This document shows, in pieces, positions 1,379-47,372 of a stretch of DNA of 64,000 nucleotides. Below the pieces are notes generated by a model. That model worked only from the letters and a program-made list of their open reading frames with translations. It had not been told where the DNA came from and searched no databases. The DNA lies in the NCBI RefSeq assembly GCF_058153355.1, contig NZ_CM177019.1; one strand, 5' to 3'. Made by a program: the position numbers and the translations under genes. The first letter of the stretch is position 1; every line of letters starts with the position of its first letter.

Positions 1379-1480
1379 AATAAATAGCTCCTGAAATCAG
1401 CGAGAATGTAAGACCTTCCACAATGGACAGGTCAGGTAGCCAGAACACCCATCAGGCGCGTCCTCATCGGCTACGATGTA

Positions 1481-1509
1481 AAAATGGGTCTGGAAATGCA
1501 CTTTTCAAG
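1481..1509 (-). promoter_or_regulatory. sigma32 (heat shock) promoter upstream of ibpA
   Basis: Minus strand reads CTTGAAA, 14 nt spacer, CCCATTTT, matching the sigma32 -35/-10 consensus, about 100 nt upstream of the ibpA start. Confidence 0.55.
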
Positions 1510-1683
1510 CCTTATCAGCGGACTTTTTTTTGCAGTTTATGGTCTATTGCATAGACTGAGGGGGCAGCACGAAACGTTAAAGTGCGATAGCCGCCACAGT
1601 GCGACGTAATGATGATGTTATTTTCAGCAAGGGATCGCTATAACTCATCAGGCCAACACCCACGATCAACAGATGAATTTATT

Positions 1684-2016
1684 ATGATAAGAAATGTGTT
1701 GTTAGCGTTCATGATATGCAGCGGAATGACATTACTCGGAGGATGCTCCAGCGTGATGTCCCATACCGGGGGAAAAGAAGGAACGTATCCCGGCACCCGC
1801 GCCAGCGCCACCATGATTGGCGACGATGAAACCAACTGGGGCACTAAGTCGCTGGCGATTCTCGATATGCCGTTTACCGCTGTGATGGACACGCTTTTAC
1901 TGCCGTGGGATGTGTTCCGCAAAGACAGCTCGGTGCGCTCACGCGTTGAAAAAAGCGAAGCCAACGCGCAAGCCACCAATGCGGTTATTCCACCGGCCAG
2001 AATGCCTGATAACTGA
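1684..2016 (+). CDS. yidQ: small lipoprotein YidQ
   Basis: Internal ATG of track ORF 1609..2016 gives a 110 aa protein with a lipobox (LLGGC); position between ibpA and yidR as in K-12. Confidence 0.8.
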   Translation: MIRNVLLAFMICSGMTLLGGCSSVMSHTGGKEGTYPGTRASATMIGDDETNWGTKSLAILDMPFTAVMDTLLLPWDVFRKDSSVRSRVEKSEANAQATNAVIPPARMPDN

Positions 2017-2017
2017 T

Positions 2018-3268
2018 TTAGCGATCAGTTTCGGTGATCCACAGCTGGCCGCCTTCCATCCACGCTAGCCATCGACCATCCGGCGAGAAGACCACGGCGT
2101 CCGCAGAAGGGGGATTGGCGTGGTTTTCGGTTAAATACTCAACCTCGCCGCTTTGCGCATGGGCGCAAGCAATTCGATTATCCAGCACAAAGCCCAACCA
2201 TTCTCCTGACGGATGCCAGTTAAATGCAGACTGAATATCCGTTTTGTTATGGGTTAACTGGCGCGGCTCGCCGCCCTGTGGCGAGATAAGCCACAGTTGC
2301 ACAATGCCGTTATCATCACGCATTAAAAACGCGATTTGCGTACCCTGCGGATTACAGCGCACCCAGTGGCGCGGGACGTTGACTAACCCCGGATAAGCCC
2401 GATGGTGGGTAAAGGTTAAACGTCGCTGCACGACGCCACGCGGTGGCGCGGGCAGGGTTGTTTCCGTTCCACTTAACGGCGCATCACCTGCTGCTTTCCA
2501 GCCAGCTTCATCTTGCGGTAACTCAACGATGAACAGCTCCGGCACTTTCTCGCCCTTTGGCGAAAGTGTGTCGCCAATAAACGCCAGCGCGTGGTTTCCT
2601 ACCCATCCTTCTTCATAAGCACGATTAATTTCATCACTGCCAGGCTGCGGCGTGGGCGTTGTTTTACTTACCAGTACGCACCAGTGGCTACCGCTGTATT
2701 CACGCGGATGCTGCTTTTGTACGTTGACCGGGCCAAACGGTACCGCAACACTGACGTTGCGCAAATCCAGCGCCGGATCGCGTTCATGCATCACATGGTC
2801 GTTATAGGTAAAGCTCACCATTACACCGTTCGGGCTAAAGACATGTACATGGCTGCCGCCACGCAGCGCCCCTGGCGTATACGGCGCGGTAATATCCATT
2901 GCATCAAGGTTGCTCATCTTGCCGTCTTCAACAATCACGCCTCGACGGTGATGGAAATCGTAATGCCATGTTTCATCAGGATTTTCAGGTCCGTGGATAA
3001 AGACATATTTCTCTGACTTCGGATGAACGGTCACCACGCCGACGTGTGCGCCCTGTGACGCACGGTAGATAACCTCGACCTCACCGGTATGAATATTCAC
3101 ACGTTCAATAGTTTCGCCGGTAAACGACGCCCCAGAAGGACGCACGTCAAATACCAGCCACTGGCTGTCGGGCGTCCAGGTATTGGTATTAGTGAGCAGG
3201 TGATTACGGGGAGCAAAGGTTATCTGTTTCATGGCGTGGTCCTGATACAAAACGGTTTCCGCAATCAT
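2018..3268 (-). CDS. yidR: YidR, beta-propeller-like protein of unknown function
   Basis: 416 aa ORF in the conserved position. An internal ATG at 3232 has a better Shine-Dalgarno (AGGA) and may be the true start. Confidence 0.8.
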   Translation of the reverse strand: MIAETVLYQDHAMKQITFAPRNHLLTNTNTWTPDSQWLVFDVRPSGASFTGETIERVNIHTGEVEVIYRASQGAHVGVVTVHPKSEKYVFIHGPENPDETWHYDFHHRRGVIVEDGKMSNLDAMDITAPYTPGALRGGSHVHVFSPNGVMVSFTYNDHVMHERDPALDLRNVSVAVPFGPVNVQKQHPREYSGSHWCVLVSKTTPTPQPGSDEINRAYEEGWVGNHALAFIGDTLSPKGEKVPELFIVELPQDEAGWKAAGDAPLSGTETTLPAPPRGVVQRRLTFTHHRAYPGLVNVPRHWVRCNPQGTQIAFLMRDDNGIVQLWLISPQGGEPRQLTHNKTDIQSAFNWHPSGEWLGFVLDNRIACAHAQSGEVEYLTENHANPPSADAVVFSPDGRWLAWMEGGQLWITETDR

Positions 3269-3332
3269 ACTTCACAAGGACTTCACTTTCAGACAATAGT
3301 CTTTTGCCATCGTGATGAATGTGAGTGAAAAG

Positions 3333-4433
3333 ATGGAACATTTCGACGTGGCGATTATTGGCCTCGGCCCGGCAGGGTCGGCGTTGGCGCGAAAGTTAGC
3401 AGGCAAAATGCAGGTGATCGCGCTGGATAAAAAGCACCAGTGCGGTACTGAAGGTTTCAACAAGCCTTGCGGCGGTCTGCTGGCACCGGACGCTCAGCGA
3501 TCTTTTATTCGCGATGGACTGACGCTTCCTGTCGATGTGATCGCCAATCCGCAGATTTTCAGCGTCAAAACCGTCGACGTCGCCGCATCGCTTACACGTA
3601 ACTACCAGCGAAGCTATATCAATATTAATCGCCATGCTTTCGACTTATGGATGAAATCGCTGATCCCCGCCAGCGTTGAGGTTTACCACGATAGCCTGTG
3701 CCGGAAAATCTGGCGCGAGGATGATAAATGGCATGTCATTTTTCGCGCAGACGGCTGGGAGCAACACATTACCGCCCGCTATCTGGTCGGTGCCGATGGT
3801 GCAAACTCGATGGTGCGGCGACATCTCTACCCGGATCATCAGATTCGTAAATATGTTGCTATCCAGCAGTGGTTCGCAGAGAAACATCCGGTGCCGTTCT
3901 ACTCCTGCATCTTTGATAATGCGATAACTGACTGTTATTCATGGAGTATCAGCAAAGACGGTTATTTTATCTTTGGCGGTGCCTATCCAATGAAAGACGG
4001 CCAGGCGCGCTTCACGGCGCTAAAAGAGAAAATGAGCGCCTTTCAGTTCCAGTTTGGTAAGGCGGTAAAAAGCGAAAAATGCACGGTGCTGTTTCCCTCA
4101 CGCTGGCAGGATTTTGTCTGCGGTAAGGACAACGCCTTTCTGATTGGTGAAGCGGCGGGATTTATCAGCGCCAGCTCGCTGGAGGGGATTAGCTATGCGC
4201 TGGATAGTGCAGAGATTCTGCGTTCGCTGTTACTGAAGCAGCCGGAGAAGAGCAACGCCGCTTACTGGCGCGCCACCCGCAAACTGCGTTTAAAACTCTT
4301 CGGCAAAATAGTAAAAAGCCGATGCCTGACCGCACCGGCTTTAAGAAAATGGATTATGCGCAGTGGTGTGGCGCATATTCCACAGTTTAAAGATTATCCA
4401 ACGCGCTTCACATCGCCCACCAGCAGGATGTAA
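3333..4433 (+). CDS. cbrA: FAD-dependent oxidoreductase CbrA (YidS)
   Basis: N-terminal Rossmann motif [14 protein letters not shown]. Track ORF starts at 3312 (GTG); start is uncertain between 3312, 3315 and 3333. 3' end overlaps convergent dgoT. Confidence 0.8.
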
Positions 4434-5686
4434 GAGAGCGCGCCAATCAACGCGACGGCGGAGATATAAACCAGTGCAGGCGCGAAACCGTAACCCTGCG
4501 CCAGGTACCCCACCACCAGCGGAACGGTGATGCCGCCCAGACCACCGGCGAAGTTAAACACGCCGCCGGTTAAACCAATCAGCCGCATCGGTGCCAGAGA
4601 AGAGACTAACGACCAGGTAATCGAAGCAAAACCGTTGCCGAAGAATGCCAGCGCCATCAGGCACATAATCATCATCGGATCGTTGGTGTAGTTAGCACCC
4701 ATAATGCAGGTGGAGATCAGCAAACCGCAGATAATCGGCGTTTTACGCGCAAAGCCCAGTGAAAAGCCCTTACGTACCAGCAGATCCGCGACCCAGCCAG
4801 AGAGCAGGACGCCGACAAACGCCGCAAGGAAAGGCACCGTGGTCATAAAGCCCGCTTTCAACGCCGTGATGCCTTTTTCCTGGGTTAAATAGTTCGGGAA
4901 CCAGGTTAAGAAGAACCACAGTGTAGAAGCCACCGCAAATTGCCCAAGATAGACGCCGATCAGTTTACGATGGAACACCAGTTTCCAGTCTTTGGCTGTT
5001 AGCGGCTGACGCGACTCTTTTTTCACTGGCGCATCGCCATCCACCAGACCGCCGCCGTCACGAATGTAATCCAGTTCAGCTTTGCTAATGCCTTTGGTCA
5101 GGCGCGGCGGCTGATAAACCTTAAACCAAATCAGCGACCAGATAATGCCGATACCGCCGGTGACAATGAACACCCAGTGCCAGCTCAACATTTCCTGAAT
5201 CCAGATCAGCAGCGGAGTCAGAAACGCCAGACCGACAAACTGACCAGACGTATAAAAACCCACGGCAGAAGCGCGTTCATGTTCCGGGAACCAGCTGGTC
5301 ACCATCCGGTTATTGGTCGGGAACGCGGGCGCTTCGAAAATACCGGTTATCGCACGCAGACCAATTAATGACATTAAGCCCGTGGCAAAGCCCTGGAATA
5401 ACGTCGCCACTGACCAGCCAAATATCGCAATAAAATAAGTCACGCGAGAACCTACGCGATCTAAAAACCAACCGCCGGGGATCTGACATAAGGTATAAAG
5501 CCAGGCGAAGGCCGAAAATACATAGCCCATTTGCGCTTTGGTAATGCCGAACTCTTCCTGAATATGGGCGGAAGCCACGGCCAGGTTAGCGCGGTCAACA
5601 TAACAAATGACCACCGTAATAAAGATCATCACCAGCGTCAGATAACGCCGACGCCCCGGTTTTGCTGCATTAACGGGAATATCCAT
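4394..5686 (-). CDS. dgoT: D-galactonate:H+ symporter DgoT (MFS)
   Basis: 430 aa from [15 protein letters not shown] matches DgoT; track ORF is extended 15 codons upstream. Confidence 0.92.
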
Positions 5687-5805
5687 AGCGAGCTTTCTCC
5701 AGATTTTGGGCATAGCGAAGCCGCTCACCATGCCCTGTAATGTACAGAGGGTTATATTTTTGTATTGCTGTTTTAGTGCCCGATGAGGGGCTTACGTGGC
5801 AGGAA

Positions 5806-5956
5806 TTACCACTCTGCTACGCTGTTATCTTCATGACGCCAGAGCGGATTACGCCAGTCCGGGGCATTTTTACTGAACTCAATGACTTTGGCTTCGTCGA
5901 TTTCTACGCCTAAGCCCGGTTTCGTTAATGGTTTAAAGAAGCCGCCGACCATGCTG
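5806..5956 (-). pseudogene. dgoD: 3' fragment of dgoD (D-galactonate dehydratase), truncated by IS4
   Basis: Last ~49 codons ([27 protein letters not shown]...NSVAEW) match the DgoD C-terminus; reading frame runs directly into the IS4 end at 5957. Confidence 0.7.
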
Positions 5957-7382
5957 TAATGCCAGTCAGTTAAGCAACTGACTGGCTCTTTTTCGGGGCT
6001 GTGGGGTATTTCCAGGGCCTCTCCTTTACCACTCTCGGGAAGGCCCTTTCCCTTCTTGTCGGTAATTTCACAAGTTGTCCCATACTTGCAAGATCGCGCA
6101 TCAGCTCCGGTATACGTCCCGGTGAAGCGCCCTGCAATGTCATCAGCATTCTCATCACCATTCCGCATGATTCTGAGAAACTCAGTTGATTCGGCCAGTA
6201 ACCTTTCAGATGTTCCGCCATTTTAATCATCTGATATCTCACCAGATTATAAGCCAGTAAGACACCCCACAGCTCTTGCTCCACAAGCTCCGGCTTTTTA
6301 CTTCTCAGCGTCAGCCTGCTCAGTTGCATCGTCTGTTTTATCTCCCTGTATCCCAGTTCGATTTCCCAGCGATGACTGTACAGATCCGCCATTTCTCCTC
6401 CGGGGAAGCGCATGGCGTCCGTCATCGACGTCAGCAGATGGCAGACTTTTCCTTTGCGCGTCACGGTCAGCAGGCGGGCTGTCACTTCATTTCCCAGTCC
6501 CGGCCACTTTTTTCGTGCCTGCGGGCTGGTTTTCAGCTTCACCAGATGATCGCCTTTACCCAGTTTTCTGATCTCTTCATATTGCGCTCCCTTTCTGAGA
6601 GGTATCATCCAGTGGCGGTGTTCTCCCGCCAGGCTCCAGGCATTTAACAGTCCCAGTGAGTAATAACCTTTATCCATTAACGTCAGAGTGTTATCGCCGG
6701 TTTGTTCTATAAGTTGCTCAGCAAGCTCATTTTCGCTGTTCTTCATCGTGCCGAAGGCTGCAGCCGTCAGCAGATGGCTGGTCAGTTCCATCTGGCAGAC
6801 CATTTTGACCTGCGGGTAGAGCGCCGGGTTCCCGGCATGTGTCTGGCGGGGGAAGGCTGCATCGTTCTCTGGTGTATCCGGTGTGCGCCAGAACACACCA
6901 TCGATGGCCAGCAGGGTCAGGCCGCACCAGTGCGGATGCGGCGTGGCGTTATGCCAGAGCTGCGCTGTTTTCGTGAACACGCGGCGGACAGCCTCACTTC
7001 CCAGGCGCTGGCGGGCCTGAATAACGGCACTGGGGGCAACGAAGGGGCGATTGCCCGGCAGCATGATGTCCAGGCGATTCACAATCTGGTGAAGAGGTTC
7101 TTTACGCTCAAGCGCCATGCCAACAATACACCAGACCATCATTTCGAGGGGAAGACGGCGCTTGCGTAGCGTTACAGTACCTGATTCGGCAAGGCAACGA
7201 GAGATGAGTTCGGGGTCGAGGTAATCCCCCAGAGAAGTCAGTGGGTTACGCAGAGAATCGTAACGGGATACCAGATCAAGAGCCTGTCCAATGTGCATAA
7301 AAAAATCCGGAAACAAGTGAGCGTTTCCGGATTCTTACACAGCCACTGGATCGGTCAACTGATCCTTAACTGATCGGCATTA
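5957..7382 (-). mobile_element. IS4 insertion sequence, complete (1426 bp)
   Basis: Terminal inverted repeats TAATGCCAGTCAGTTAAG (5957-5974) and reverse complement of TAATGCCGATCAGTTAAG (7365-7382); single transposase ORF inside; length equals canonical IS4. Confidence 0.92.
5970..7298 (-). CDS. insG: IS4 transposase
   Basis: 442 aa from [20 protein letters not shown] matches the IS4 transposase (DDE family); track ORF 5970..7316 has 6 extra N-terminal codons. Confidence 0.88.
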
Positions 7383-7490
7383 GGCCAAATCGGTCCCGTT
7401 TTTTTTCGCCTTTATTTCGGAGAAGTGTCCAGAGGGGCAAGGGGATTCGGGGGAGTATAATTTCGCCATTCAGAAAGAATGGAAAGAATA

Positions 7491-8017
7491 ATGCAAAACA
7501 GAAAATGGATTTTGACCTCGCTGATAATGACTTTTTTCGGCATCCCCATACTGGCGCAATTACCAACTGGCGCACGGTTGGCGGTAACGATCAGGAGATC
7601 CAGACCTGGCAACGCCCGGAAGACTCTGGCAGCCAGACAGTGATGCAATCGCAGGTCATGAAAAATGTCCGCATGATCTCGCCGCAGGAAACCGAAGTGG
7701 CAAGCATGATGGAGGGAATGATTAAAGTTGTTGCCGAATACCGTAATACAAACAACTCAATAGGCTACACCTTCCGCTATTACGCAACACAAATGAACGC
7801 CGATAAAAATATAAAACTGCTAGCTATTAACGGTATTGCACCGACTGCGGAAAATATTCGTAACGGCAAATATCCGTATATCGTCGATGCCTTTATGGTA
7901 ACGCGGGAAAATACTACGTCAGAAACACAAAAACTGGTCGAATGGTTTTTAACGCCGCAGGGGCAGAGTCTGGTGGAAGATGTGGGCTATGTGCCGCTGT
8001 ATCCAACAATGAAATAA
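7491..8017 (+). pseudogene. yzgL: yzgL-like internally deleted PstS-like binding-protein gene
   Basis: ATG at 7491 encodes a signal-peptide-like start (MQNRKWILTSLIMTFFGIPILA) that runs out of frame after ~50 codons. Frame +2 (track ORF 7505..8017) encodes only the C-terminal half of a protein paralogous to the downstream 330 aa lipoprotein. Confidence 0.6.
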
Positions 8018-8042
8018 CGCTCGAGAGAAAGGAATCAGCGCA

Positions 8043-9035
8043 ATGAATAAATTCACCGGTGTTTTACTATTAGGTACGGCGTTACTGGCGGGATGTGTCG
8101 ACCGGGAAGGGTACTATAACAGCGTCAGGGAAGAAGAGAGTCATGGACTGACGTCTCTGCGGGGGCAACCTGAATTACGTTACAGCGATGATTGGTCAAG
8201 ATGGCCGAGAGTGTACGGCGCTACAGCCTTATACCCGCTGTATGCCTCCGCGTATTATGAATTAGTACCCGAGCCAAAAGATAAGGATCGAACCTCGCTG
8301 GCCTGGCAGGCGTATGGTTTGCAACAAACCCGAACAGCTGAAGCCTACGATAGTCTGATCAAGGGTACCGCGACGGTTATTTTTGTTGCACAACCGTCGG
8401 AAGGACAGAAAAAACGTGCAGAAGAAGCAGGCGTTAAACTGAAATATACCGCGTTTGCCCGCGAAGCCTTTGTCTTTATCGTTGATATCAAAAACCCGGT
8501 TAATTCACTTAGCGAACAGCAAGTCAAAGACATTTTTAGCGGTAAAGTGAGTCGCTGGAATAAAGTGGGCGGCGGTGACGAAAGTATAAAAGTCTGGCAG
8601 CGGCCAGAAGATTCTGGAAGCCAAACGGTTATGAAGGGACTGGTTATGCAAGATACTCCAATGCTGCCAGCCAAAAAATCCACTGTTATCGATCTTATGG
8701 GCGGTTTAATTACCGAAGTCGCCGACTACCAAAACACACCATCTTCCATTGGATACACCTTCCACTATTACGTCACACGTATGAATGACAATATGCTCAA
8801 AATGCGCAAACAGATCAAACTGCTGGCTATAAATGGCGTTGCACCTACAGAGGAAAATATCCGTAACGGCACTTATCCGTACATAATTGATGCTTATATG
8901 GTGACGCACGAAAACCCTACGCTGGAAACGCAGAAATTCGTCGACTGGTTTTTAAGCCCGCAGGGACAGCAATTGGTAGAGGATGTGGGGTATGTGCCGA
9001 TTCATGACGCATCATACGAATCATCAGTGCAATAA
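8043..9035 (+). CDS. putative lipoprotein with PstS/phosphate-binding-protein-like domain
   Basis: 330 aa ORF with Shine-Dalgarno AAGGA, lipobox LLAGC, and C-terminal half about 60% identical by eye to the upstream pseudogene. Family assignment is by motif impression only. Confidence 0.7.
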   Translation: MNKFTGVLLLGTALLAGCVDREGYYNSVREEESHGLTSLRGQPELRYSDDWSRWPRVYGATALYPLYASAYYELVPEPKDKDRTSLAWQAYGLQQTRTAEAYDSLIKGTATVIFVAQPSEGQKKRAEEAGVKLKYTAFAREAFVFIVDIKNPVNSLSEQQVKDIFSGKVSRWNKVGGGDESIKVWQRPEDSGSQTVMKGLVMQDTPMLPAKKSTVIDLMGGLITEVADYQNTPSSIGYTFHYYVTRMNDNMLKMRKQIKLLAINGVAPTEENIRNGTYPYIIDAYMVTHENPTLETQKFVDWFLSPQGQQLVEDVGYVPIHDASYESSVQ

Positions 9036-9637
9036 TGATGAATAAAATCAGACTTTATATTCCTCCGTTAATTCTTGGTTTTGTTATTGTGCCGTTGTTG
9101 GTGTGGCCGACGGTGGTTGCGCTGGCTGCTTCTGTTATCACGCTGAGTTTTCTGGGAGAGATACTGTTCTCTATCCCGCTCATGATCAGGCATATTTCGC
9201 TTCTGCAATTACAACTATGGTTATCGGCTGAATATGCGCTTTTCTGCTGTGCAATGGTGGGCGTTGGTTGGCAATTTGCTCGTATAACTCAATCCGAATC
9301 GAAAAGCAGACTGCATTGTTGGCTGGTATTTGCACCAGTTTATTTCTGGTTGCTCCTGTGGAATATCATTTTCTATGTCGCGCCAGCGAATATTGCGTTG
9401 CTGGAGAATATGCGCAGTTTCTTTCTGACAGTTGTCTGGCTCCCACTGAATTTTTCGCCATTTTGGTCTCAACCGTGGATTGACTTTGTCGGTCCAATAA
9501 GCGCACAGCTTGGTTTTGCGTTGGGATATTATTGCCAGTGGCGTAGCAAAAATAGAAGCCAGATACGGAAGTGGAGTGAGTGGGGAACGTGCCTGAGTTT
9601 TGTTACGTTGGGTATGATGGCGTGGGCTTTGCGGTAA
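9035..9637 (+). CDS. polytopic inner-membrane protein of unknown function
   Basis: 200 aa ORF whose start overlaps the upstream stop (TAATG), implying translational coupling; several hydrophobic segments rich in W/F/L. Confidence 0.6.
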   Translation: MMNKIRLYIPPLILGFVIVPLLVWPTVVALAASVITLSFLGEILFSIPLMIRHISLLQLQLWLSAEYALFCCAMVGVGWQFARITQSESKSRLHCWLVFAPVYFWLLLWNIIFYVAPANIALLENMRSFFLTVVWLPLNFSPFWSQPWIDFVGPISAQLGFALGYYCQWRSKNRSQIRKWSEWGTCLSFVTLGMMAWALR

Positions 9638-11466: not shown

Positions 11467-11871
<405 letters not shown>

Positions 11872-11903
11872 CGCTTTATACTGTCCCCTTTTGTGTGGAA
11901 TAA

Positions 11904-12746
<843 letters not shown>

Positions 12747-12762
12747 TTCCAGGGATTTATAA

Positions 12763-13521
12763 ATGAAACAAACACAACGTCACAACGGTATTATTGAACT
12801 GGTTAAACAGCAGGGTTATGTCAGCACCGAAGAACTGGTGGAACACTTCTCCGTCAGTCCGCAGACTATTCGTCGTGACCTCAACGAGCTGGCGGAGCAA
12901 AACCTGATCCTGCGTCACCATGGCGGCGCGGCACTGCCTTCCAGTTCGGTTAACACGCCGTGGCACGATCGTAAGGCCACCCAGACCGAAGAAAAAGAGC
13001 GTATTGCCCGCAAAGTGGCGGAGCAAATTCCTAACGGCTCGACGCTATTTATTGATATCGGCACCACGCCGGAAGCGGTGGCGCACGCGCTGCTTAATCA
13101 CAGCAATTTGCGCATTGTGACCAACAATCTCAACGTCGCTAACACGCTGATGGTAAAAGAAGATTTTCGCATCATTCTTGCAGGTGGCGAATTACGCAGC
13201 CGCGATGGTGGGATCATTGGCGAAGCGACGCTCGATTTTATCTCCCAGTTCCGCCTTGATTTCGGGATTCTGGGGATCAGCGGCATCGATAGCGACGGCT
13301 CGCTGCTGGAGTTCGATTACCACGAAGTTCGCACCAAACGCGCTATTATTGAGAACTCGCGCCACGTTATGCTGGTTGTCGATCACTCGAAATTTGGCCG
13401 TAATGCGATGGTCAATATGGGCAGCATCAGCATGGTCGATGCCGTCTACACCGACGCCCCGCCACCAGCGAGCGTGATGCAGGTGCTGACAGACCATCAT
13501 ATTCAGCTGGAGCTGTGCTGA
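12763..13521 (+). CDS. glpR: glycerol-3-phosphate regulon repressor GlpR (DeoR family)
   Basis: 252 aa; N-terminal helix-turn-helix; conserved position after glpG. Confidence 0.93.
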   Translation: MKQTQRHNGIIELVKQQGYVSTEELVEHFSVSPQTIRRDLNELAEQNLILRHHGGAALPSSSVNTPWHDRKATQTEEKERIARKVAEQIPNGSTLFIDIGTTPEAVAHALLNHSNLRIVTNNLNVANTLMVKEDFRIILAGGELRSRDGGIIGEATLDFISQFRLDFGILGISGIDSDGSLLEFDYHEVRTKRAIIENSRHVMLVVDHSKFGRNAMVNMGSISMVDAVYTDAPPPASVMQVLTDHHIQLELC

Positions 13522-15101
13522 TCCTGCACGGCTTCCCACGTCAGACCAAAACGCGCCAGGTATTTGCGTAGCCGATCCGCGTCGTTGACGCTGGCTTTGC
13601 CCTGGCGCGAAACATCAAAGAGTTCACGCCCGGCAGCGGAAAGCGATTTTGCCTGACGGCAGATAGCGATAACGTGTTCCAGTTGCAGCCGATCAAAGAG
13701 GTCGATGTTTTCCGCTTCAGTGCCCAGTAGCTGCTTAAGCGCAGAAGAGCGGCTATCCTGCCAGTTGTAGCGTAGACGGTTTATCTCATCTTCTACGGTT
13801 TCAAGGGTGATACGCCCACTATCGGCAAACGTCGCCATGCGTGTGACGCTGGCAGAAAGTTCGCGAAAGTTACCGCGCCATGCTGCCTGAGATGATGTCG
13901 CAAAGGCCAGCCAGGCGCGCCTCGCTTCGGTGTTAAAACGCACGCTGTCGCCGGTAAGTGAGGCGTGGCGCTCCACTTCATAATCCAGGTTCGGTTCAAT
14001 ATCTTCCTGGCGCTGGCGTAGACCCGGCAGGGTGAAGGTCCAGAGATTGATCCGCGCGTACAGGTCTTCGCGAAATTTGCCTTCGGCAACCAGCTGACGC
14101 AAATCGCGCACCGTTCCGGCGATCAGCTGAAAATCACTGCTCACCAGGCGATCGCTACCAAACGGGTAAAAGGTTTTCTCTTCAATGGCTTTTAGCAACA
14201 TTGCCTGTTCGTCTGCGCCCAGTTCGCCAATCTCATCAAGAAACAACATGCCGCCGTTGGCGCTGCGTAATAACCCTTCACGAGATTCCCGCGCCCCGGT
14301 AAACGCGCCTTTCACATGACCAAACAGCGCGGACATGGCGGTATCGCCACGCAGAGTGGCGCAGTTCACTTCCACAAACGCGCCGCTAAACTGATGCCGC
14401 GCCTGTTTTAACTCGAAGATGCGTCGTGCCAGAAACGACTTTCCCGCACCGGTTGGGCCGTTGAGCAGGATCGGTGCGCGGGATCTAATCGCCACTTTTT
14501 CGATCTGCTCAATCATGCGGTTGAAGTGGGCGTTACGCGTGGCAATGCCGGATTTGAGGAAATCGAGGGTTTGCTGGCGTTCTTCGGCAAAGCGGCTGGC
14601 AATAGCGTTATAACGGCTTAAATCGAGATCGATAATCGTCACCGCACCAGGGCTGTTGGGCTGTTCTTTTTTACGCGGTGGCGAAGATTGTATTAACCTG
14701 GCGGGCAGGTAACGTGCTTCCGCCAGCAGAAACCAGCAAATCTGCGCGACGTGGGTACCGGTGGTGATGTGAATTAAATAGTCTTCTTTATCAGGTTGGA
14801 ATGCGTAACCACGGGCAAAATCATGCAGGCAGGCGTAAACCTCCTCGAAATCCCATGGGTTATGCAGTTCAATCTCAACGCCCACCACTTCTGTTTCTGG
14901 CGAAACATTGGCGATATCGCGTTTAAGCGTTTCAAACAGCGAGCGTGAGCGGACGTCGTGCAACAATTCCAGTCGATCGATGACTAACGATTCTTGCTGG
15001 CATAGACAGAGTGACGGACGCCATTTCGACCATCGCTGACTGCCGCGCCCGGCATAATCCAGTACGGTGCCGACAAAGCCAAAAGCCACTGTTTTACGCA
15101 T
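13503..15101 (-). CDS. rtcR: sigma54-dependent transcriptional activator RtcR
   Basis: 532 aa; AAA+ sigma54-interaction domain (GPTGAGKS Walker A, GAFTGA motif); divergent from rtcBA; 3' end overlaps glpR by 19 bp. Confidence 0.9.
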   Translation of the reverse strand: MRKTVAFGFVGTVLDYAGRGSQRWSKWRPSLCLCQQESLVIDRLELLHDVRSRSLFETLKRDIANVSPETEVVGVEIELHNPWDFEEVYACLHDFARGYAFQPDKEDYLIHITTGTHVAQICWFLLAEARYLPARLIQSSPPRKKEQPNSPGAVTIIDLDLSRYNAIASRFAEERQQTLDFLKSGIATRNAHFNRMIEQIEKVAIRSRAPILLNGPTGAGKSFLARRIFELKQARHQFSGAFVEVNCATLRGDTAMSALFGHVKGAFTGARESREGLLRSANGGMLFLDEIGELGADEQAMLLKAIEEKTFYPFGSDRLVSSDFQLIAGTVRDLRQLVAEGKFREDLYARINLWTFTLPGLRQRQEDIEPNLDYEVERHASLTGDSVRFNTEARRAWLAFATSSQAAWRGNFRELSASVTRMATFADSGRITLETVEDEINRLRYNWQDSRSSALKQLLGTEAENIDLFDRLQLEHVIAICRQAKSLSAAGRELFDVSRQGKASVNDADRLRKYLARFGLTWEAVQDQHSSS

Positions 15102-15235
15102 CTTAGATATCCTTATAAAAGACGATATTTCATTATCGGCGAATTGGCTTTGCGGGAAATCTCCGTTTACGGACGTACAGATTTTATCTATTTAAAAACA
15201 ATGAATTAAAAAATTAAGCTGCTTATTTAATTTTC

Positions 15236-15251
15236 TGGCACGACGGTTGCA
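15236..15251 (+). promoter_or_regulatory. sigma54 promoter of rtcBA
   Basis: TGGCAC-N5-TTGCA, a perfect -24/-12 sigma54 element, ~40 bp upstream of the rtcB start. Confidence 0.7.
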
Positions 15252-15289
15252 ATTATCTGGACAGCAAACAACGAAAAGAGAAAAACAAA

Positions 15290-16507
15290 ATGAATTACGA
15301 ATTACTGACCACTGAAAATGTCCCGGTAAAAATGTGGACCAAAGGCGTACCGGTAGAAGACGATGCGCGTCAGCAACTGATAAATACGGCGAAGATGCCG
15401 TTTATTTTCAAACATATTGCGGTAATGCCTGATGTACATCTGGGTAAAGGTTCCACCATTGGTAGCGTGATCCCGACCAAAGGGGCGATTATTCCGGCGG
15501 CGGTGGGGGTAGATATCGGTTGTGGAATGAACGCACTGCGAACTGCGTTAACGGCGGCTGACCTGCCTGAAAACCTGGCGGAGTTGCGTCAGGCGATTGA
15601 AGCTGCCGTGCCGCACGGACGTTCCAATAATCGTAGCCGTCGTGATAAAGGCGCATGGGAGAATCCGCCTGTTAACGTCGATGCGAAATGGGCTGAGCTT
15701 GAAGCCGGTTATCAGTGGTTAACGCAAAAATATCCGCGTTTCCTTAATACCAATAACTATAAACACCTGGGAACGGGAAACCACTTTATTGAAATCTGTC
15801 TTGATGAGTCGGACCAGGTGTGGATTATGCTGCACTCCGGTTCACGCGGAATCGGTAATGCCATCGGGACTTACTTTATCGATCTGGCGCAAAAAGAGAT
15901 GCAGGAAACGCTTGAAACGTTGCCATCGCGTGACCTGGCGTACTTTATGGAAGGTACGGAATATTTTGACGATTACCTGAAAGCGGTGGCCTGGGCGCAG
16001 CTTTTTGCCAGCCTTAACCGCGATGCGATGATGGAAAATGTGGTAACGGCGTTGCAGAGCGTTACGCAGAAAACGGTAAGACAGCCACAAACGCTGGCGA
16101 TGGAAGAGATCAACTGTCACCACAACTATGTGCAAAAAGAACAGCACTTTGGCGAAGAGATCTATGTGACGCGTAAAGGCGCGGTGTCTGCGCGTGCTGG
16201 TCAATATGGAATTATTCCCGGTTCGATGGGGGCGAAAAGCTTTATTGTCCGTGGGCTGGGAAATGAAGAGTCGTTCTGTTCGTGCAGCCACGGTGCCGGG
16301 CGGGTAATGAGCCGTACTAAAGCGAAAAAACTGTTCAGCGTGGAAGATCAAATTCGTGCTACCGCGCATGTGGAATGCCGTAAAGATGCCGAAGTGATCG
16401 ACGAAATCCCGATGGCGTATAAAGATATCGACGCGGTGATGGCGGCACAAAGCGATCTGGTGGAAGTAATCTACACCCTGCGTCAGGTGGTGTGTGTAAA
16501 AGGATAA
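15290..16507 (+). CDS. rtcB: RNA-splicing ligase RtcB
   Basis: 405 aa; conserved Asp75/Cys78 (DIGCG) and GNHF motif. Three residues shorter than my recollection of the K-12 protein (see findings). Confidence 0.9.
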   Translation: MNYELLTTENVPVKMWTKGVPVEDDARQQLINTAKMPFIFKHIAVMPDVHLGKGSTIGSVIPTKGAIIPAAVGVDIGCGMNALRTALTAADLPENLAELRQAIEAAVPHGRSNNRSRRDKGAWENPPVNVDAKWAELEAGYQWLTQKYPRFLNTNNYKHLGTGNHFIEICLDESDQVWIMLHSGSRGIGNAIGTYFIDLAQKEMQETLETLPSRDLAYFMEGTEYFDDYLKAVAWAQLFASLNRDAMMENVVTALQSVTQKTVRQPQTLAMEEINCHHNYVQKEQHFGEEIYVTRKGAVSARAGQYGIIPGSMGAKSFIVRGLGNEESFCSCSHGAGRVMSRTKAKKLFSVEDQIRATAHVECRKDAEVIDEIPMAYKDIDAVMAAQSDLVEVIYTLRQVVCVKG

Positions 16508-17527
<1,020 letters not shown>

Positions 17528-23301: not shown

Positions 23302-25386
23302 ATGGAAAGCAAACGTCTGGATAATGCCGCGCTGGCGGCGGGGATCAGCCCCAATTACATCAATGCCCACGGTAAACCGCAGTCGATTAGCGCCGAAACC
23401 AAACGGCGTTTGCTTGACGCGATGCATCAACGTACCGCCACGAAAGTGGCGGTAACGCCAGTCCCGAATGTCATGGTCTATACCAGCGGCAAAAAAATGC
23501 CGATGGCGGTGGAGGGCAGCGGCGAGTATAGCTGGCTGCTGACCACCGAAGAAGGAACGCAGTACAAAGGCCATGTAACGGGGGGCAAAGCGTTCAATTT
23601 ACCGACGAAGTTGCCGGAAGGTTATCACACGTTGACACTCACCCAGGACGACCAGCGCGCGCATTGTCGGGTGATTGTCGCCCCGAAACGCTGTTACGAA
23701 CCGCAGGCGTTGCTGAATAAACAAAAGCTGTGGGGCGCCTGCGTCCAGCTTTATACGCTGCGATCGGAAAAAAACTGGGGTATTGGGGATTTTGGCGATC
23801 TCAAAGTGATGCTGGTGGATGTGGCAAAACGTGGCGGGGCTTTCATCGGTCTGAACCCGATTCATGCGCTCTATCCGGCAAATCCAGAAAGTGCCAGCCC
23901 GTATAGCCCGTCTTCTCGTCGCTGGCTAAATGTGGTTTATATCGACGTTAACGCCGTCGAAGATTTCCATCTTAGCGAAGAGGCTCAGGCCTGGTGGCAG
24001 TTACCGACCACGCAACAGACGCTGCAACAGGCGCGGGATGCCGACTGGGTCGATTACTCCACCGTCACTGCGCTGAAAATGACAGCATTGCGGCTAGCGT
24101 GGAAAGGTTTTGCGCAACGTGATGATGAGCAGATGGCCGCGTTTCGCCAGTTTGTTGCAGAGCAGGGCGACAGCCTGTTCTGGCAGGCGGCGTTTGACGC
24201 GTTACATGCCCAGCAAGTGAAAGAAGACGAAATGCGCTGGGGCTGGCCTGCATGGCCAGAGATGTATCAGAACGTGGATTCACCAGAAGTGCGTCAGTTC
24301 TGCGAAGAACATCGTGATGACGTCGATTTTTATCTCTGGTTGCAGTGGCTGGCTTACAGCCAGTTTGCCGCCTGCTGGGAGATAAGCCAGGGCCATGAAA
24401 TGCCGATTGGCTTGTACCGTGATCTGGCGGTTGGCGTAGCGGAAGGTGGGGCGGAAACCTGGTGCGACCGTGAACTGTATTGCCTGAAAGCGTCGGTGGG
24501 CGCACCGCCGGATATCCTTGGCCCGCTGGGGCAGAACTGGGGATTGCCGCCGATGGATCCGCATATCATCACCGCGCGTGCCTATGAACCGTTTATCGAG
24601 CTGTTGCGTGCCAATATGCAAAACTGCGGCGCGTTGCGAATTGACCATGTGATGTCGATGCTGCGTTTGTGGTGGATACCGTATGGCGAGACGGCAGATC
24701 AGGGCGCGTATGTTCACTATCCGGTAGATGATCTGCTCTCGATTTTGGCACTCGAAAGTAAGCGCCATCGCTGCATGGTGATTGGTGAAGACCTCGGCAC
24801 TGTACCGGTAGAGATTGTCGGCAAGCTGCGCAGCAGCGGTGTGTACTCCTACAAAGTGCTCTATTTCGAAAGCGACCACGAGAAGACGTTCCGTGCACCG
24901 AAAGCGTATCCGGAGCAGTCGATGGCGGTTGCGGCGACACACGACCTGCCTACACTGCGTGGCTACTGGGAGAGCGGGGATTTAACGCTCGGCAAAACGC
25001 TGGGGCTGTACCCGGATGAAGACGTGCTGCAAGGTTTGTATGAAGATCGCGAACTGGCGAAGCAAGGGCTGCTGGATGCGCTGCATAAATATGGCTGTCT
25101 GCCAAAACGTGCCGGGCATAAGGCATCGTTGATGTCGATGACGCCGACGCTGAATCGTGGTTTGCAACGTTATATCGCTGACAGCAACAGCGCCCTGTTA
25201 GGGCTACAGCCAGAAGACTGGCTGGATATGGCGGACCCGGTGAATATCCCCGGCACCAGTTACCAGTATAAAAACTGGCGACGTAAGCTTTCTGCAACGC
25301 TTGAGACGATGTTTGCCGATGATGGCGTGAACAAGTTGATTAAGGATCTGGACAAGCGGCGCAGGGCGGTAGGGAAGAAGAAATAG
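23302..25386 (+). CDS. malQ: 4-alpha-glucanotransferase (amylomaltase)
   Basis: 694 aa; immediately downstream of malP. Confidence 0.95.
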   Translation: MESKRLDNAALAAGISPNYINAHGKPQSISAETKRRLLDAMHQRTATKVAVTPVPNVMVYTSGKKMPMAVEGSGEYSWLLTTEEGTQYKGHVTGGKAFNLPTKLPEGYHTLTLTQDDQRAHCRVIVAPKRCYEPQALLNKQKLWGACVQLYTLRSEKNWGIGDFGDLKVMLVDVAKRGGAFIGLNPIHALYPANPESASPYSPSSRRWLNVVYIDVNAVEDFHLSEEAQAWWQLPTTQQTLQQARDADWVDYSTVTALKMTALRLAWKGFAQRDDEQMAAFRQFVAEQGDSLFWQAAFDALHAQQVKEDEMRWGWPAWPEMYQNVDSPEVRQFCEEHRDDVDFYLWLQWLAYSQFAACWEISQGHEMPIGLYRDLAVGVAEGGAETWCDRELYCLKASVGAPPDILGPLGQNWGLPPMDPHIITARAYEPFIELLRANMQNCGALRIDHVMSMLRLWWIPYGETADQGAYVHYPVDDLLSILALESKRHRCMVIGEDLGTVPVEIVGKLRSSGVYSYKVLYFESDHEKTFRAPKAYPEQSMAVAATHDLPTLRGYWESGDLTLGKTLGLYPDEDVLQGLYEDRELAKQGLLDALHKYGCLPKRAGHKASLMSMTPTLNRGLQRYIADSNSALLGLQPEDWLDMADPVNIPGTSYQYKNWRRKLSATLETMFADDGVNKLIKDLDKRRRAVGKKK

Positions 25387-25398
25387 AGTGCGATTGAT

Positions 25399-25419
25399 GC
25401 CGGATGCGATGCATCCGGC
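25399..25419. terminator. intergenic hairpin between convergent malQ and gntT
   Basis: gccggatgc-gat-gcatccggc perfect stem-loop; no clear U-tract, so terminator function is uncertain. Confidence 0.35.
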
Positions 25420-25430
25420 AGTCAGTGTTA

Positions 25431-26747
25431 TCAAATCACCATATTCAGCAGCAGACAGCCTACCAGACCGCACACCGAGATAATGGTTTCCAGCATCGAC
25501 CAGGACTTGATGGTCTCGCCGATAGTCAGGTTAAAGTACTCTTTGAACAGCCAGAAGCCCGGATCGTTCACGTGAGAGAAAATCACACTACCGGAACCAA
25601 CCGCAATAACCATCAGCTCCGGGCTAACGCCTGTCGTTGCAATCAGTGGTGCCGCGATACCCCCCGCAGTGATTGCCGCAACGGTTGCGGAACCCAGCGC
25701 GATACGCAGTACGGCGGCAATCGACCAGGCCATCAGCAGCGGAGAAATGTTGGTTTCGTGCATCATGGAAGCAATGTATTTGTCCACGCCGCTGTCTACC
25801 AGCACCTGCTTGAACGCACCGCCACCACCGATGATCAACAGCATCATCGCGATGATTTTGATGGAAGAAACCAGCGTGTCGTTAATCTGATCCATTGAAC
25901 GACCACGGTTCAGACCAAAGGTGAACATCGCAATCAACACGGCAATCAGCGTTGCCATTACCGGGTCACCGAGGAACTCCGCCACTGGCAGGAAAGCGTG
26001 ACCTTTCGGCAGGATCATTTCGGCAATTGCACGCATCGCCATCAGCACAACCGGCACCAGAGAAGTCCAGACGCTGACGCCAAAGCTTGGCATCTCTTCT
26101 TCGCTGAAGGTTTTCGCGCTGTACAGACCTTCCGGGATTGGCTTATCGATACCTTTCAGCACGCGAGCGTAAACCGGACCCGCGAGAATAACGGTCGGGA
26201 TTGCCAGAATAGTCCCGTACAGCAGGGTTTTACCCATATCGGCATTGAAAATGGTGGCAATCGCAGTTGGGCCCGGATGTGGCGGCAGGAAGCCGTGGGT
26301 CACAGACAGCGCAGCCGCCATTGGTACACCAACATACAGCAGCGGAATATTCGCGGAAGCCGCGATGGTAAACACCAGCGGCAGCATTAGCACGAAGCCC
26401 ACTTCATAGAACAGGGCAAAACCGACAGTAAAACCGGTTAACACTACCGCCCATTGGATGTGTTTTTTACCAAATTTGGCAATCAGCGTGGTGGCGATAC
26501 GTTGTGCACCACCGCAGTCTGCCAGCATTTTGCCCAGCATCGCGCCAAAACCCATGATCAGGGCAAGGCTACCGAGCGTCCCGCCGACACCAGCTTTGAT
26601 GGAGCCAATAACTTTATCCAGCGGCATTCCCTGCATTAATCCAACAGCAAGCGCCACGAGGACGAGAGCGATGAATCCGTTCATTTTGAAGCGGATCATC
26701 AGGAGCAACAACAAGATTACACCGATAGCAACAATGACTAATGGCAT
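25431..26747 (-). CDS. gntT: high-affinity gluconate transporter GntT
   Basis: 438 aa GntP-family permease. Confidence 0.93.
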   Translation of the reverse strand: MPLVIVAIGVILLLLLMIRFKMNGFIALVLVALAVGLMQGMPLDKVIGSIKAGVGGTLGSLALIMGFGAMLGKMLADCGGAQRIATTLIAKFGKKHIQWAVVLTGFTVGFALFYEVGFVLMLPLVFTIAASANIPLLYVGVPMAAALSVTHGFLPPHPGPTAIATIFNADMGKTLLYGTILAIPTVILAGPVYARVLKGIDKPIPEGLYSAKTFSEEEMPSFGVSVWTSLVPVVLMAMRAIAEMILPKGHAFLPVAEFLGDPVMATLIAVLIAMFTFGLNRGRSMDQINDTLVSSIKIIAMMLLIIGGGGAFKQVLVDSGVDKYIASMMHETNISPLLMAWSIAAVLRIALGSATVAAITAGGIAAPLIATTGVSPELMVIAVGSGSVIFSHVNDPGFWLFKEYFNLTIGETIKSWSMLETIISVCGLVGCLLLNMVI

Positions 26748-28435: not shown

Positions 28436-29224
<789 letters not shown>

Positions 29225-29252
29225 GTAGCTGTTGAAATGGCGAGACAGAATT

Positions 29253-30131
29253 TTACTGACTCGCCGCAGCCAACTCTTCTTCTGACACCCCGGTAAAGCG
29301 CATGATGTCCGCAAGAGGGACTCCGGATTCAAGCATTATTTTTGCTATATGCAAGGCTTTGGATTGTTCCCCCTCTTGCCGCAATCTTTCTGCAATAGTC
29401 ATTAAACTCTCCTTGTGTTTCGGTGAACGTTTGGCCACACCGTCGATAAAATCATTAAAACGTACTGCATCGCCAGTTTGCAGTATGTAATTAAACAGCC
29501 CTTTGATTTGTCTGTCATTAGCGTATCCACTACTTAATAAGCAGGCCATTTGCTCTACCAGCCCCATCAGGTCGCGTTGACGTATATGTTTTTGGATTAA
29601 CTCCAGCAGCGCCATACGTCGGTGCTGCATGATTTCATCATCAGGCATGACAGTGACATCAATCAGCGGGAATGCAGAGGCATAAAGCTGTCTGGCCAGT
29701 TTGGGATCGGCGAAACAATCCAGCCAACACAGTGAATAGGGATATGGGCTTTCAATGCCGTGGTAAAACAACAATGGCACCACCATCGGCAACGTTTTGT
29801 ATCCGGCATCCAGGTGATTTTGCATTGCGGCAATGGCGTAACGCATCATGCGAAATGCGATCAGTTTGTTTGAGGTGCTTTGATGTTCAATCAGACAATA
29901 GATATATCCCGGTCCTTGTTCCGTTTTCACCGACCACAGCACGTCGGAATAGCTTTCACGCAGATCGTCATCAATAAAGCTGCTCGACTCCAGCTTGAGG
30001 GTTTTCATATCACAGAGCGCGTGAATAGGTGCCGGTAAATGGAACGCAAGAAAATCGCGTGCCGTGTCCGGTTGGCGTAAAAAGAGTTTGAACAGCGCAT
30101 CATGTGGGGTGGAACTCTGCTTTTTGCTCAT
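29253..30131 (-). CDS. rpnA: recombination-promoting nuclease RpnA (YhgA, transposase_31 family)
   Basis: 292 aa; conserved position between bioH and feoC. Confidence 0.85.
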
Positions 30132-43455: not shown

Positions 43456-45180
43456 ATGGATAACGTTGAACTTTCACCCGCAACACGCTGGGGGATGATT
43501 GCTACCGGATTACTTCAGGGTCTGGTTTGCTACCTACTGATCGCCTGGCTTGCCGGAAAAAATCTCAGTTGGATTGTTTATGGCGTGCCTGCGACCGTCG
43601 CGTTTTCATCCGTTTTACTCTTCTCCGTGATCTCCTTTAAACAGAAGCGCCTTTGGGGATGGCTGGCGCTGGTGTTTATTGCCACGCTGGGAATGAGCGG
43701 CTGGCTGAAGTGGCAAACTGATGGCATGAACCCCTGGAGAGCTGAAAAGGCGCTTTGGGATTTTGGTTGCTATCTGCTGCTGATGGCAATGTTGTTGCTA
43801 CCGTGGATACAACAAAGCCTTCGCATCCGCAATGACAGTAGCCGCTATCGCTATTTTTACCAGTCAGTATGGCATAACGTACTTATATTACTGGTGATTT
43901 TTCTCGCCAATGGCCTGACGTGGCTGGTGCTATTACTGTGGAGTGAGTTGTTTAAACTTGTTGGCATCACGTTTTTCAAAACGCTCTTTTTTGCAACCGA
44001 CTGGTTTATTTATCTCACGTTAGGTCTGGTTACCACACTGGCGGTGATCCTCGCGCGTACACAGTCACGTTTAATCGACTCTATTCAAAAGTTGTTCACG
44101 TTAATCGCCACTGGGTTGCTGCCGTTAGTATCATTGCTAACCCTGATGTTTATCATCACCCTGCCGTTTACGGGCCTGAGCGCGATTTCTCGCCACATCT
44201 CCGCCGCCGGGTTGCTGTTGACGCTGGCCTTTTTGCAATTGATTTTAATGGCTATTGTCCGCGATCCGCAAAAAGCGTCACTTCCCTGGACGGGGCCGTT
44301 GCGTTGCCTGATTAAAACCGCTCTGCTGGCTGCTCCGCTGTATGTGTTCGTCGCCGCCTGGGCGTTATGGCTGCGGGTCGCTCAGTACGGCTGGACTGTC
44401 GACCGCTTGCAGGGCACGCTGGCGGTGCTGGTGTTACTGGTATGGTCGCTGGGGTATTTTGTCAGTATCGTCTGGCGTAAAGGGCAAACCCCTCTTGTTC
44501 TTCAGGGCAAAGTGAACCTTGCGGTTTCGTTATTGGTGTTGGTAATACTGGTGCTTCTTAATTCGCCGGTGCTGGATAGTATGCGCATTAGTGTGAACAG
44601 TCATATGGCACGTTATCAGAGCGGCAAGAACACGCCAGATCAGGTAAGTCTCTACATGCTCGAACAGAACGGTCGCTATGGACGTGCGGCGCTTGAGTCG
44701 CTGAAAAGCGATGCCGAGTATATGAAAGACCCGAAACGCGCACGGGATCTGCTGATGACGTTAGATGGAGAGCAACATCTTCAGGAACAGGTATCGGAAA
44801 AAGTATTAGCCGAAAATGTGTTAATTGCCCCAGGCTCTGGCAAACCGGATACGGCATTCTGGTCGGCCTTAATCCAGGATCGCTATAACGTGATGACCTG
44901 TATTGAAAAAGACGCCTGCGTACTGGTCGAGCAAGATCTGAATAGTGATGGTCAGGCGGAGCGGATCCTGTTTGCTTTTAATGATGACAGAGTCATTGTC
45001 TATGGCTTTGACCCGGCCAGAAAAGAATGGGACGCGCTTGATATGAGTTTACTTCCGCGCCAAATAACGAAAGAAAAATTACTCGCTGCTGCGAAGGATG
45101 GAAAACTGGGGACGAAGCCTAAAGCATGGTGTGATCTGACGGTAGATGGTGAAACGCTGGAAATAAACCTAAGTAAGTGA
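43456..45180 (+). CDS. yhgE: inner-membrane protein YhgE
   Basis: 574 aa polytopic membrane protein; conserved position next to pck. Confidence 0.88.
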
Positions 45181-45250
45181 CAATGCGTATTTGATTTTTT
45201 ATCGGATACGACGCTTTATCTTACCAACAATAACTTGCGAATTATTGCAT

Positions 45251-45279
45251 AGGCCTGGTAAGCGCAGCGCATCAGGCCA
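45251..45279. repeat. REP palindromic unit
   Basis: aggcctggtaagcgcagcgcatcaggcc between yhgE and hslO. Confidence 0.45.
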
Positions 45280-45324
45280 TTACGTCGTAAAATCCGGCAG
45301 AGCACTCTCTGCCGGACATACTCA

Positions 45325-46209
45325 TTAATGAACTTGCGGATCTGCCGGAGACGCGTTGTTGCGGATTTCAGCAATATCCATCGCATTGAACAGATAGTGG
45401 TTACCGCAGTAATCACAATGCATGTCAATTTCGCCTTCTTCCGCCAGAATGCTATCCACTTCTTCATCCGGCAGCGTTTTTAGCGCGTCGGCGCAACGTT
45501 CACGCGAGCAGGTGCATTTGAACTCCACATCCTGCGGATCGTAAACCGTCACCTCTTCTTCGTGATACAAACGCCACAACACTTCGTTTGCCGGTAAGGT
45601 CAGCAGTTCTTCGGTTTTGATGGTTTCGGTTAGCGTTGCCAGGTGGTCAAAGTCGTCCTGCTGGGCATTTTGCGCAGGCATTACCTGCAACAACATACCG
45701 CCTGCAGCCGGTTTGCCGTCTACGTCGCCGGTGCGAATAAACAGGCGCGTCGGCAGCTGTTCAGAACGCATAAAGTAATCTTCCAGGCAGGCCGCCAGGG
45801 TATCACCTTCCAGACCAACCACGCCCTGATAGCGTTCGCCTTCGCTCGGAGTAATGGTGATCACTACGTAACCATTGCCGACCAGCGTTTTCAGGTCGGC
45901 ATTTTCTGGAATTTCGCCCTGCACGCGCGCCACACCGCGCATCTGCTGGTTGTTGTTACCATTAATAACCGCCAGATTCATCGGTCCGTCGCCTTGCAGT
46001 TGTACGGTGATATCACCATCAAACTTCAGCGTAGCGGTTAACAGGCTGGTCGCAACCAGCAGTTCTGCCAGCACGTTTTTAACGGGCTGCGGATAATCGT
46101 GATTCTCAAGGATCTGTTGCAGGGTTTCCGAAACGGTTACCAGTTCGCCGCGAACGGCAAAGTTTTCAAACAGATAGCGATGTAATTGGTCATGTTGCGG
46201 CATAATCAT
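45325..46209 (-). CDS. hslO: redox-regulated chaperone Hsp33
   Basis: C-terminal zinc centre CTCSRERC...CDYCGNHY; N-terminus MIMPQHDQL (start may be 6 nt downstream). Confidence 0.93.
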
Positions 46210-46227
46210 CTCTCTTGCAGGTGACAG

Positions 46228-46629: not shown

Positions 46630-46639
46630 GGCGTCTCCT

Positions 46640-47308: not shown

Positions 47309-47372
47309 GAGGGAAATCTCCAGAGTGAAGCAATTTGCGCGACAGGGTAGCATAACCTGCCGCGCAAACGTG

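Follow-up and report, generated by a model that had tools for sequence, protein, structure and literature searches.

Do convergent genes that share their last bases do so for a purpose, or is the sharing what remains when genes are packed tightly? Two gene pairs raise this question in the stretch of DNA that we analysed, 64,000 nucleotides of contig NZ_CM177019.1 (NCBI RefSeq assembly GCF_058153355.1; hereafter the window), which is a piece of an Escherichia chromosome. In the first pair glpR converges on rtcR, in the second cbrA converges on dgoT, and in both the coding sequences overlap at their 3' ends.

The two gene pairs and their shared bases

Both overlaps lie exactly where the first-pass annotation had put them (Table 1). 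That between glpR and rtcR agrees with the list of open reading frames and with the RefSeq annotations of K-12 and of strain 2020CK-00188, to which this segment is closest among public genomes; in that strain, too, it measures 19 bp. The cbrA/dgoT overlap, previously given as about 40 bp, agrees with the list and with the RefSeq annotation of E. coli SF-166.

Table 1. Features of the two convergent gene pairs (positions in the window) and lengths of the glpR/rtcR overlap in other taxa.
Feature	Position	Strand	Description and basis
cbrA coding sequence, long allele	3333..4433	+	366 aa (K-12: 354 aa); open reading frame and NF008519
Intrinsic terminator-like element, putatively of the dgo operon	4305..4342	-	Within the cbrA coding sequence; scan and folding
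dgoT coding sequence	4394..5686	-	430 aa from the K-12-equivalent start; open reading frame and TIGR00893
cbrA/dgoT overlap	4394..4433	both	40 bp; open reading frame coordinates
Polymorphic base setting the overlap length	4397		T here, G in K-12
glpR coding sequence	12763..13521	+	252 aa, intact; six-frame open reading frame list and NF008154
rtcR coding sequence	13503..15101	-	532 aa, predicted sigma-54 activator of rtcBA; open reading frame and NF038308
glpR/rtcR overlap	13503..13521	both	19 bp, TCAGCTGGAGCTGTGCTGA; open reading frame coordinates
Junction hairpin	13509..13535	both	10 bp, straddles the glpR stop, no U-run on either strand
K-12 Rho termination region, projected	~13855	+	334 nt past the glpR stop, antisense to rtcR
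glpR/rtcR overlap, other taxa			19 bp in E. albertii, E. whittamii, two further Escherichia lineages and Klebsiella oxytoca
glpR/rtcR overlap, other taxa			4 bp (CTAA) in Superficieibacter electus
glpR/rtcR overlap, other taxa			35 bp in Intestinirhabdus alba

The glpR product is identified as GlpR, the DeoR-family repressor of the glycerol-3-phosphate regulon, by its match to the NCBIfam equivalog NF008154 (553.5 bits, cut-off 331, with residues 1-252 spanning all 252 positions of the model) and has the Pfam domains HTH_DeoR (6-61) and DeoRC (74-231). Likewise, NF038308 (847.8 bits, cut-off 650, residues 1-527 of 532) assigns the rtcR product to RtcR, with the domains RtcR at 2-185 and Sigma54_activat at 187-354; its final five residues fall beyond the model. 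Two further open reading frames, 15290-16507 and 16508-17527, match rtcB and rtcA as annotated in a 98%-identical strain. Within the overlap, the plus strand encodes the GlpR end ...QLELC* and the minus strand the RtcR end ...(D)QHSSS*. The annotation of K-12 MG1655 (rtcR at 3558268-3559866, the glpR pseudogene at 3559848-3560605) gives an overlap of the same 19 bp, in which a single base departs from the window without altering either protein (Gln, CAA/CAG, in glpR; Ser, AGT/AGC, in rtcR).

For the second pair, the start of cbrA that agrees with its family is the ATG at 3333 instead of the GTG at 3312, and the dgoT start equivalent to that of K-12 is 5686, not 5731, to which the open frame runs upstream. 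CbrA scores 684.2 bits against the equivalog NF008519 (cut-off 303) over residues 1-354 of 366, with the last 12 residues outside the model, and is 96-98% identical to E. coli CbrA clusters; its product is thus assigned, by the equivalog match, as CbrA, the FAD-dependent reductase of colicin M resistance. The dgoT product matches TIGR00893, the D-galactonate transporter subfamily, with 495.3 bits over residues 23-423 (cut-off 395), and a dgoD remnant lies upstream of the gene. The model and the location in the dgo operon together identify it as DgoT, the D-galactonate:H+ symporter of the MFS.

The dgoD remnant ends at an insertion sequence. A copy of IS4 (5957-7382, 1426 bp, with 18-nt terminal inverted repeats) truncates dgoD (region 5806-7561), and on its other side abuts sequence found immediately after glgP in strain 2020CK-00188; the bases flanking the element show no target-site duplication. 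The dgo region, at 3.87 Mb in K-12, is set here beside the glpD/glpEGR region, at 3.56 Mb in K-12, a juxtaposition that points to the inversion or deletion of some 310 kb in association with IS4. Between IS4 and glpD (7383-9637) are three open reading frames (7505-8017, 8043-9035 and 9035-9637) that match parts of a variable island of 2020CK-00188 encoding PstS-family and hypothetical proteins, and in the window this island has internal deletions relative to that strain.

Read from the coordinates, both overlaps have codon position 3 opposite codon position 3, with positions 1 and 2 swapped. Because third positions face each other, neither difference from K-12 alters the protein of the partner gene, and a silent change in one gene can create or remove the stop codon of the other. 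In each pair the shared bases encode the fixed end of one protein (GlpR or DgoT) and the unmodelled, variable tail of the other (RtcR or CbrA). The extensions amount to five codons in RtcR and 12 in CbrA. By a rough estimate neither overlap exceeds chance, the extensions being within a random walk to the next antisense stop.

Overlap lengths within E. coli and across genera

The two overlaps of K-12 involve the same genes in the same orientation and reading phase as those of the window, but K-12 cbrA (3869377-3870441) and dgoT (3870438-3871730) share only 4 bp, TTAG. The difference lies in one base, the third position of the final dgoT sense codon. With the T of the window, dgoT reads GGA (Gly) and cbrA reads TAT (Tyr), whereas with the G of K-12 dgoT reads GGC (Gly) and cbrA reads TAG (stop). 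A difference that is silent in dgoT thus removes the cbrA stop, and cbrA without the K-12 stop continues for 12 more codons antisense to the end of dgoT, up to the TAA at 4431-4433.

We counted the two alleles with 33-mer probes for which every 28-base megablast seed was forced to include the variable base. The TAT allele is present in 1305 and the TAG allele in 3443 of 5426 complete E. coli genomes, counts that do not include the cbrA allele of the approximately 678 genomes matching neither probe. In SF-166, a genome with TAT, RefSeq gives a CbrA of 366 aa and a 40-bp overlap. The first-pass annotation took 40 bp to be the invariant length of this overlap, but the length depends on a common G/T polymorphism, of which the window carries one allele; in K-12, as in the majority of E. 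coli genomes, the two genes share 4 bp. CbrA consequently occurs within E. coli in two common lengths, 354 and 366 aa, and the locus offers a textbook illustration of how the gain or loss of a stop through a single base creates convergent overlaps and changes their length: a silent change in one gene can add 12 residues to the protein of its neighbour. About one E. coli genome in four has the extension; that it alters CbrA function or its coupling to dgo expression is conceivable but improbable.

The homologues give mixed signs as to which form came first. CbrA proteins of Enterobacterales and Orbales are mostly 351-356 aa long and are conserved to about ...AHI(P), after which short hypervariable tails follow; this typical length favours the short form as the original. 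For the opposite direction of change speaks the presence of the long form in one other genus, on an enterobacterial contig with 78% nucleotide identity to the window (L026), where cbrA and dgoT also overlap by 40 bp and dgoT stops with TGA. In Citrobacter amalonaticus the cbrA stop is at the same TTAN position and the overlap is 4 bp (TTAA); the CbrA tail there is longer and unrelated. Enterobacter soli has cbrA without a dgo neighbour, and DgoT ends in RVG in all cases compared.

The longer Citrobacter tail (L027, ~4040-4107) may have an origin of its own. Its 14 extra C-terminal residues, ...DRQSAATAGGLASEN, are encoded by hairpin-forming sequence, CAGTCCGCC...GGCGGACTG, between the conserved end of cbrA and the dgoT stop, and this looks like a former intergenic hairpin that is now read through by the cbrA frame.

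A scan of RtcR homologues with one genome per species yielded 21 loci, and wherever glpR adjoins rtcR among them the two genes are tail to tail and overlapping. GlpR ends in LELC* in every taxon in which it lies beside rtcR, while the RtcR tails differ between genera: DQHSSS*, SVKEMAN* and ISTAPAEYGDR* go with the overlaps of 19, 4 and 35 bp, respectively (Table 1). No glpR neighbour was found for the more distant RtcR homologues of Pseudomonas, Iodobacter, Desulfovibrio and others.

The pairing with rtcR is also broken within E. coli. Strain SCPM-O-B-8794 (L025, 990-7802) is without the equivalent of 13595-17388, that is, most of rtcR together with rtcB and rtcA, and keeps the last 93 nt of rtcR, the glpR overlap included, fused to the sequence that follows malT. 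Coverage of the glpR-rtcR query falls below 80% in 577 of the 5425 E. coli genomes that match it, perhaps through the same rtc deletion.

The surrounding DNA differs from K-12 to an uneven degree. The segment rtcB-rtcR-glpR-glpG (11868-15858) shares just 93.6% identity with K-12; over it 5407 E. coli genomes lie at 90-95%, and only 18 reach 95-99% over glpR-rtcR. The cbrA-dgoT segment (1456-5956) is 96.5% identical to K-12, and the mrcA-igaA segment (45000-53000) is 95-99% identical to nearly all E. coli genomes. From these identities, the rtcB-rtcR-glpR-glpG segment possibly represents a locally divergent, recombinant segment or lineage.

Transcription ends on the two strands

The first-pass annotation held that convergent overlap leaves no room for an intergenic terminator. 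There is indeed no intergenic space in either pair, but terminators do not appear to be lacking: they would be sited inside the partner gene, and no intergenic space does not equal no terminator. A consensus scan detected no terminator-like or promoter-like site at either junction, nor did it reveal promoter-like sites for antisense transcription in either region.

On the dgoT strand, the candidate lies within cbrA. A hairpin at 4342-4315, with an 11-bp stem that includes six G-C pairs and a 6-nt loop, is followed by the tail UUACUAUUUU; the hairpin with its U-run lies 52-79 nt beyond the dgoT stop. The 131-nt stretch containing this element folds better than its shuffles (z -2.25). Over both strands of the window, strong terminator motifs number 11 against 3.0 expected from Markov shuffles, which puts the chance of finding one on the right strand within 100 nt downstream of a given stop at about 0.002-0.009. 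The element also occurs in K-12 and on contig L026, where a silent change from CGA to CGG turns a G-U pair into a G-C pair and silent changes also alter the loop; a sequence comparison found it absent from C. amalonaticus. With its G+C-rich stem-loop and its U-rich tract downstream of a stop codon, the motif at 4342-4305 has the sequence of an intrinsic terminator, and we take it to be the terminator of the dgo operon, presumably active in vivo. The published Term-seq and SMRT-Cappable-seq tables that we searched contain no 3' ends for glpR, rtcR, dgoT or cbrA except one Rho region, and the dgo operon was probably not induced in the media of the Term-seq datasets. On the opposite strand, the sequence downstream of cbrA is moderately C-rich (C 0.39-0.40 at +40 to +140).

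An intrinsic terminator at the glpR/rtcR junction was considered and rejected, as the consensus scan shows none near the 19 shared bases. The one Rho region concerns the glpR strand: in the tables of Adams et al. (2021, PMC7815308), Rho termination is placed at K-12 position 3559514, minus strand, and assigned to the class antisense to rtcR. Reads upstream and downstream of this position number 154 and 29 without bicyclomycin and 153 and 256 with it (supplementary file 2), the Rho score is 8.89 (p 2.7e-27), and the position marks where a comparison of the two flanking 800-nt windows scored best, which is not the same as a mapped 3' end. We projected this K-12 measurement onto the window by its distance from the rtcR stop, rtcR being 1599 nt long in both genomes (Table 1). 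The same table lists regions antisense to gntT and mrcA, which are convergent partners in the window, so the Rho pattern is a general one. Like the other cases of Rho suppressing read-through into convergent neighbours in that study, this one lies antisense to the neighbour, here rtcR, and downstream of the converging gene, here glpR.

The data of Adams et al. come from MG1655 grown in LB. In this strain glpR is a frameshifted pseudogene, whereas the gene is whole in the window, and the contrast matters for carrying MG1655 transcript ends over to the window strain. The frameshifted gene may invite Rho by presenting untranslated RNA that an intact glpR would not. The C-over-G composition expected of rut-like sequence is weak or ambiguous downstream of both glpR and rtcR: a modest excess of C marks the first 80 nt beyond the glpR stop (C 0.35, G 0.26), and C/G is about 0.8-1.05 in the remainder.

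An Rfam search of the whole window at gathering scores found no family at the overlaps. The sole family above the gathering score is the RNA thermometer ROSE_2 (RF01832, 96 bits) at 1372-1444 on the minus strand, which lies, judging from related loci, between a yidQ homologue and two HSP20-family (ibpA/ibpB-like) genes.

By-product or device

We consider it very likely that both overlaps are passive by-products of tail-to-tail gene packing, and not dedicated devices. Each pair would combine one fixed C-terminus (LELC in GlpR, RVG in DgoT) with one unconstrained tail (that of RtcR or CbrA), and the unconstrained tail would extend antisense to its partner until it meets the first in-frame stop. 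Transcription of the dgo operon would be ended by the intrinsic terminator embedded in cbrA, and that of the glpEGR strand by Rho a few hundred nucleotides into rtcR, if, by analogy, the transcription-end picture of K-12 also holds in the window strain. With transcription ending inside the neighbour, the 3' ends of the mRNAs would overlap, and some antisense pairing or polymerase collision is then to be expected; interference between the two regulons, which the first-pass annotation thought possible, is plausible. Several points favour the view that the overlaps are tolerated by-products: their length varies between taxa, both cbrA alleles are common, at least one E. coli genome is without the rtc locus, and the cbrA of Enterobacter soli is without a dgo neighbour. 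We infer that the overlaps have no selected regulatory role.

Overlaps of this kind are already known and are an ordinary result of tight gene packing. Lillo and Krakauer (2007, PMC2174442) described 58 convergent overlaps in E. coli, ascribed their origin to mutation of stop codons, and placed the terminators of 21 of the 58 within the partner's coding sequence. They found the (123:213) phase to be the commonest overall, owing to 4-bp overlaps, but, among convergent overlaps of at least 5 nt, to account for no more than 18%. The pairs studied here show no material difference from theirs: they are likewise tail to tail, stop loss or gain sets their length, a putative rho-independent terminator lies inside the partner's coding sequence, K-12 cbrA/dgoT carries the TTAG tetramer, and both overlaps are in the (123:213) phase. 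In both pairs, adjacency and overlap have been kept across several enterobacterial genera, for which selection, and not only inertia, could be responsible.

This conservation of both adjacencies is among the points in favour of the alternative that the pairs are functional convergent excludons, in which each gene represses its partner through polymerase collision or through RNase III cleavage of the paired 3' ends. ExcludonFinder (PMC12288877) places cbrA-dgoT in the core excludome of MG1655, among 165 convergent excludons and in at least 50% of 58 MG1655 transcriptomes, and its authors hold that embedded terminators imply function. For this pair, overlap of the transcripts is thereby documented in K-12. 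The candidate dgoT terminator inside cbrA fits their class of overlapping terminators, and with it the transcripts would overlap whenever dgo is transcribed; on the other pair, glpR-strand transcripts of K-12 run about 330 nt antisense into rtcR before the Rho stop. If excludons they were, they would link glycerol regulation with RNA repair, and the use of galactonate with resistance to colicin M. However, the evidence behind the listing is RNA-seq coverage from MG1655, a strain with the 4-bp cbrA allele, and glpR-rtcR is absent from the list. Reciprocal expression has been reported for neither pair, and the literature that we searched yielded no pair-specific data on mutually exclusive expression or RNase III processing. 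A functional overlap also sits poorly with lengths of 4, 19 or 35 bp for glpR/rtcR and 4 or 40 bp for cbrA/dgoT, with two common cbrA alleles, with at least one E. coli genome without the rtc locus, and with cbrA lacking its dgo neighbour in Enterobacter soli. Taken together, we regard the excludon explanation as unlikely.

We give considerably less credence to a narrower version, in which read-through from glpEGR acts as a regulated antisense or collision brake on rtcR. If this were the case, then transcription of the glycerol regulon would set the threshold for RNA repair by RtcR, and the overlap would have been retained in Enterobacteriaceae for that reason.

An even less probable alternative would make the glpR/rtcR junction a bidirectional terminator driven by polymerase collision, such as SEnd-seq has revealed, with the junction hairpin as its stem-loop. 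In the published model, termination needs a stem-loop and converging polymerases, does not need a U-tract, and is Rho-independent (Ju et al. 2019; Wang et al. 2022 preprint). The window shares with these terminators a convergent pair and a 10-bp stem-loop over the shared stop region that can form on both strands. However, the hairpin is no more stable than its shuffles (z -0.48 and -0.68), its pairing over 10 taxa (84.2%, with one compensatory pair) equals that of shuffles (83.5%), and its right arm changes with the residues of RtcR, so that we do not regard it as a selected structure. Moreover, K-12 transcription on the glpR strand passes the junction, and its termination 334 nt further downstream is Rho-dependent; we therefore rejected the junction as a terminator of this type.

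That the overlaps are annotation artefacts that would vanish once stop positions were corrected, as the first-pass annotation allowed for, has practically no chance of being right, since the full-length matches to curated equivalog models fix the frames, the stops are the first in-frame stops of those frames and cannot move, independent RefSeq annotations yield matching coordinates, and only starts were adjusted. Overlapping stops should hence not be "corrected" in annotation.

Other convergent pairs in the window have published transcript ends of similar kinds. At malQ/gntT (25386-25431), transcription antisense to gntT meets a Rho termination region in K-12, at 3547196 on the minus strand. 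At bioH/rpnA (28454-30131) and yidQ/yidR (~1500-3268), overlap of 3' transcripts has been published for K-12, and both pairs are also in the excludon list (PMC12288877).
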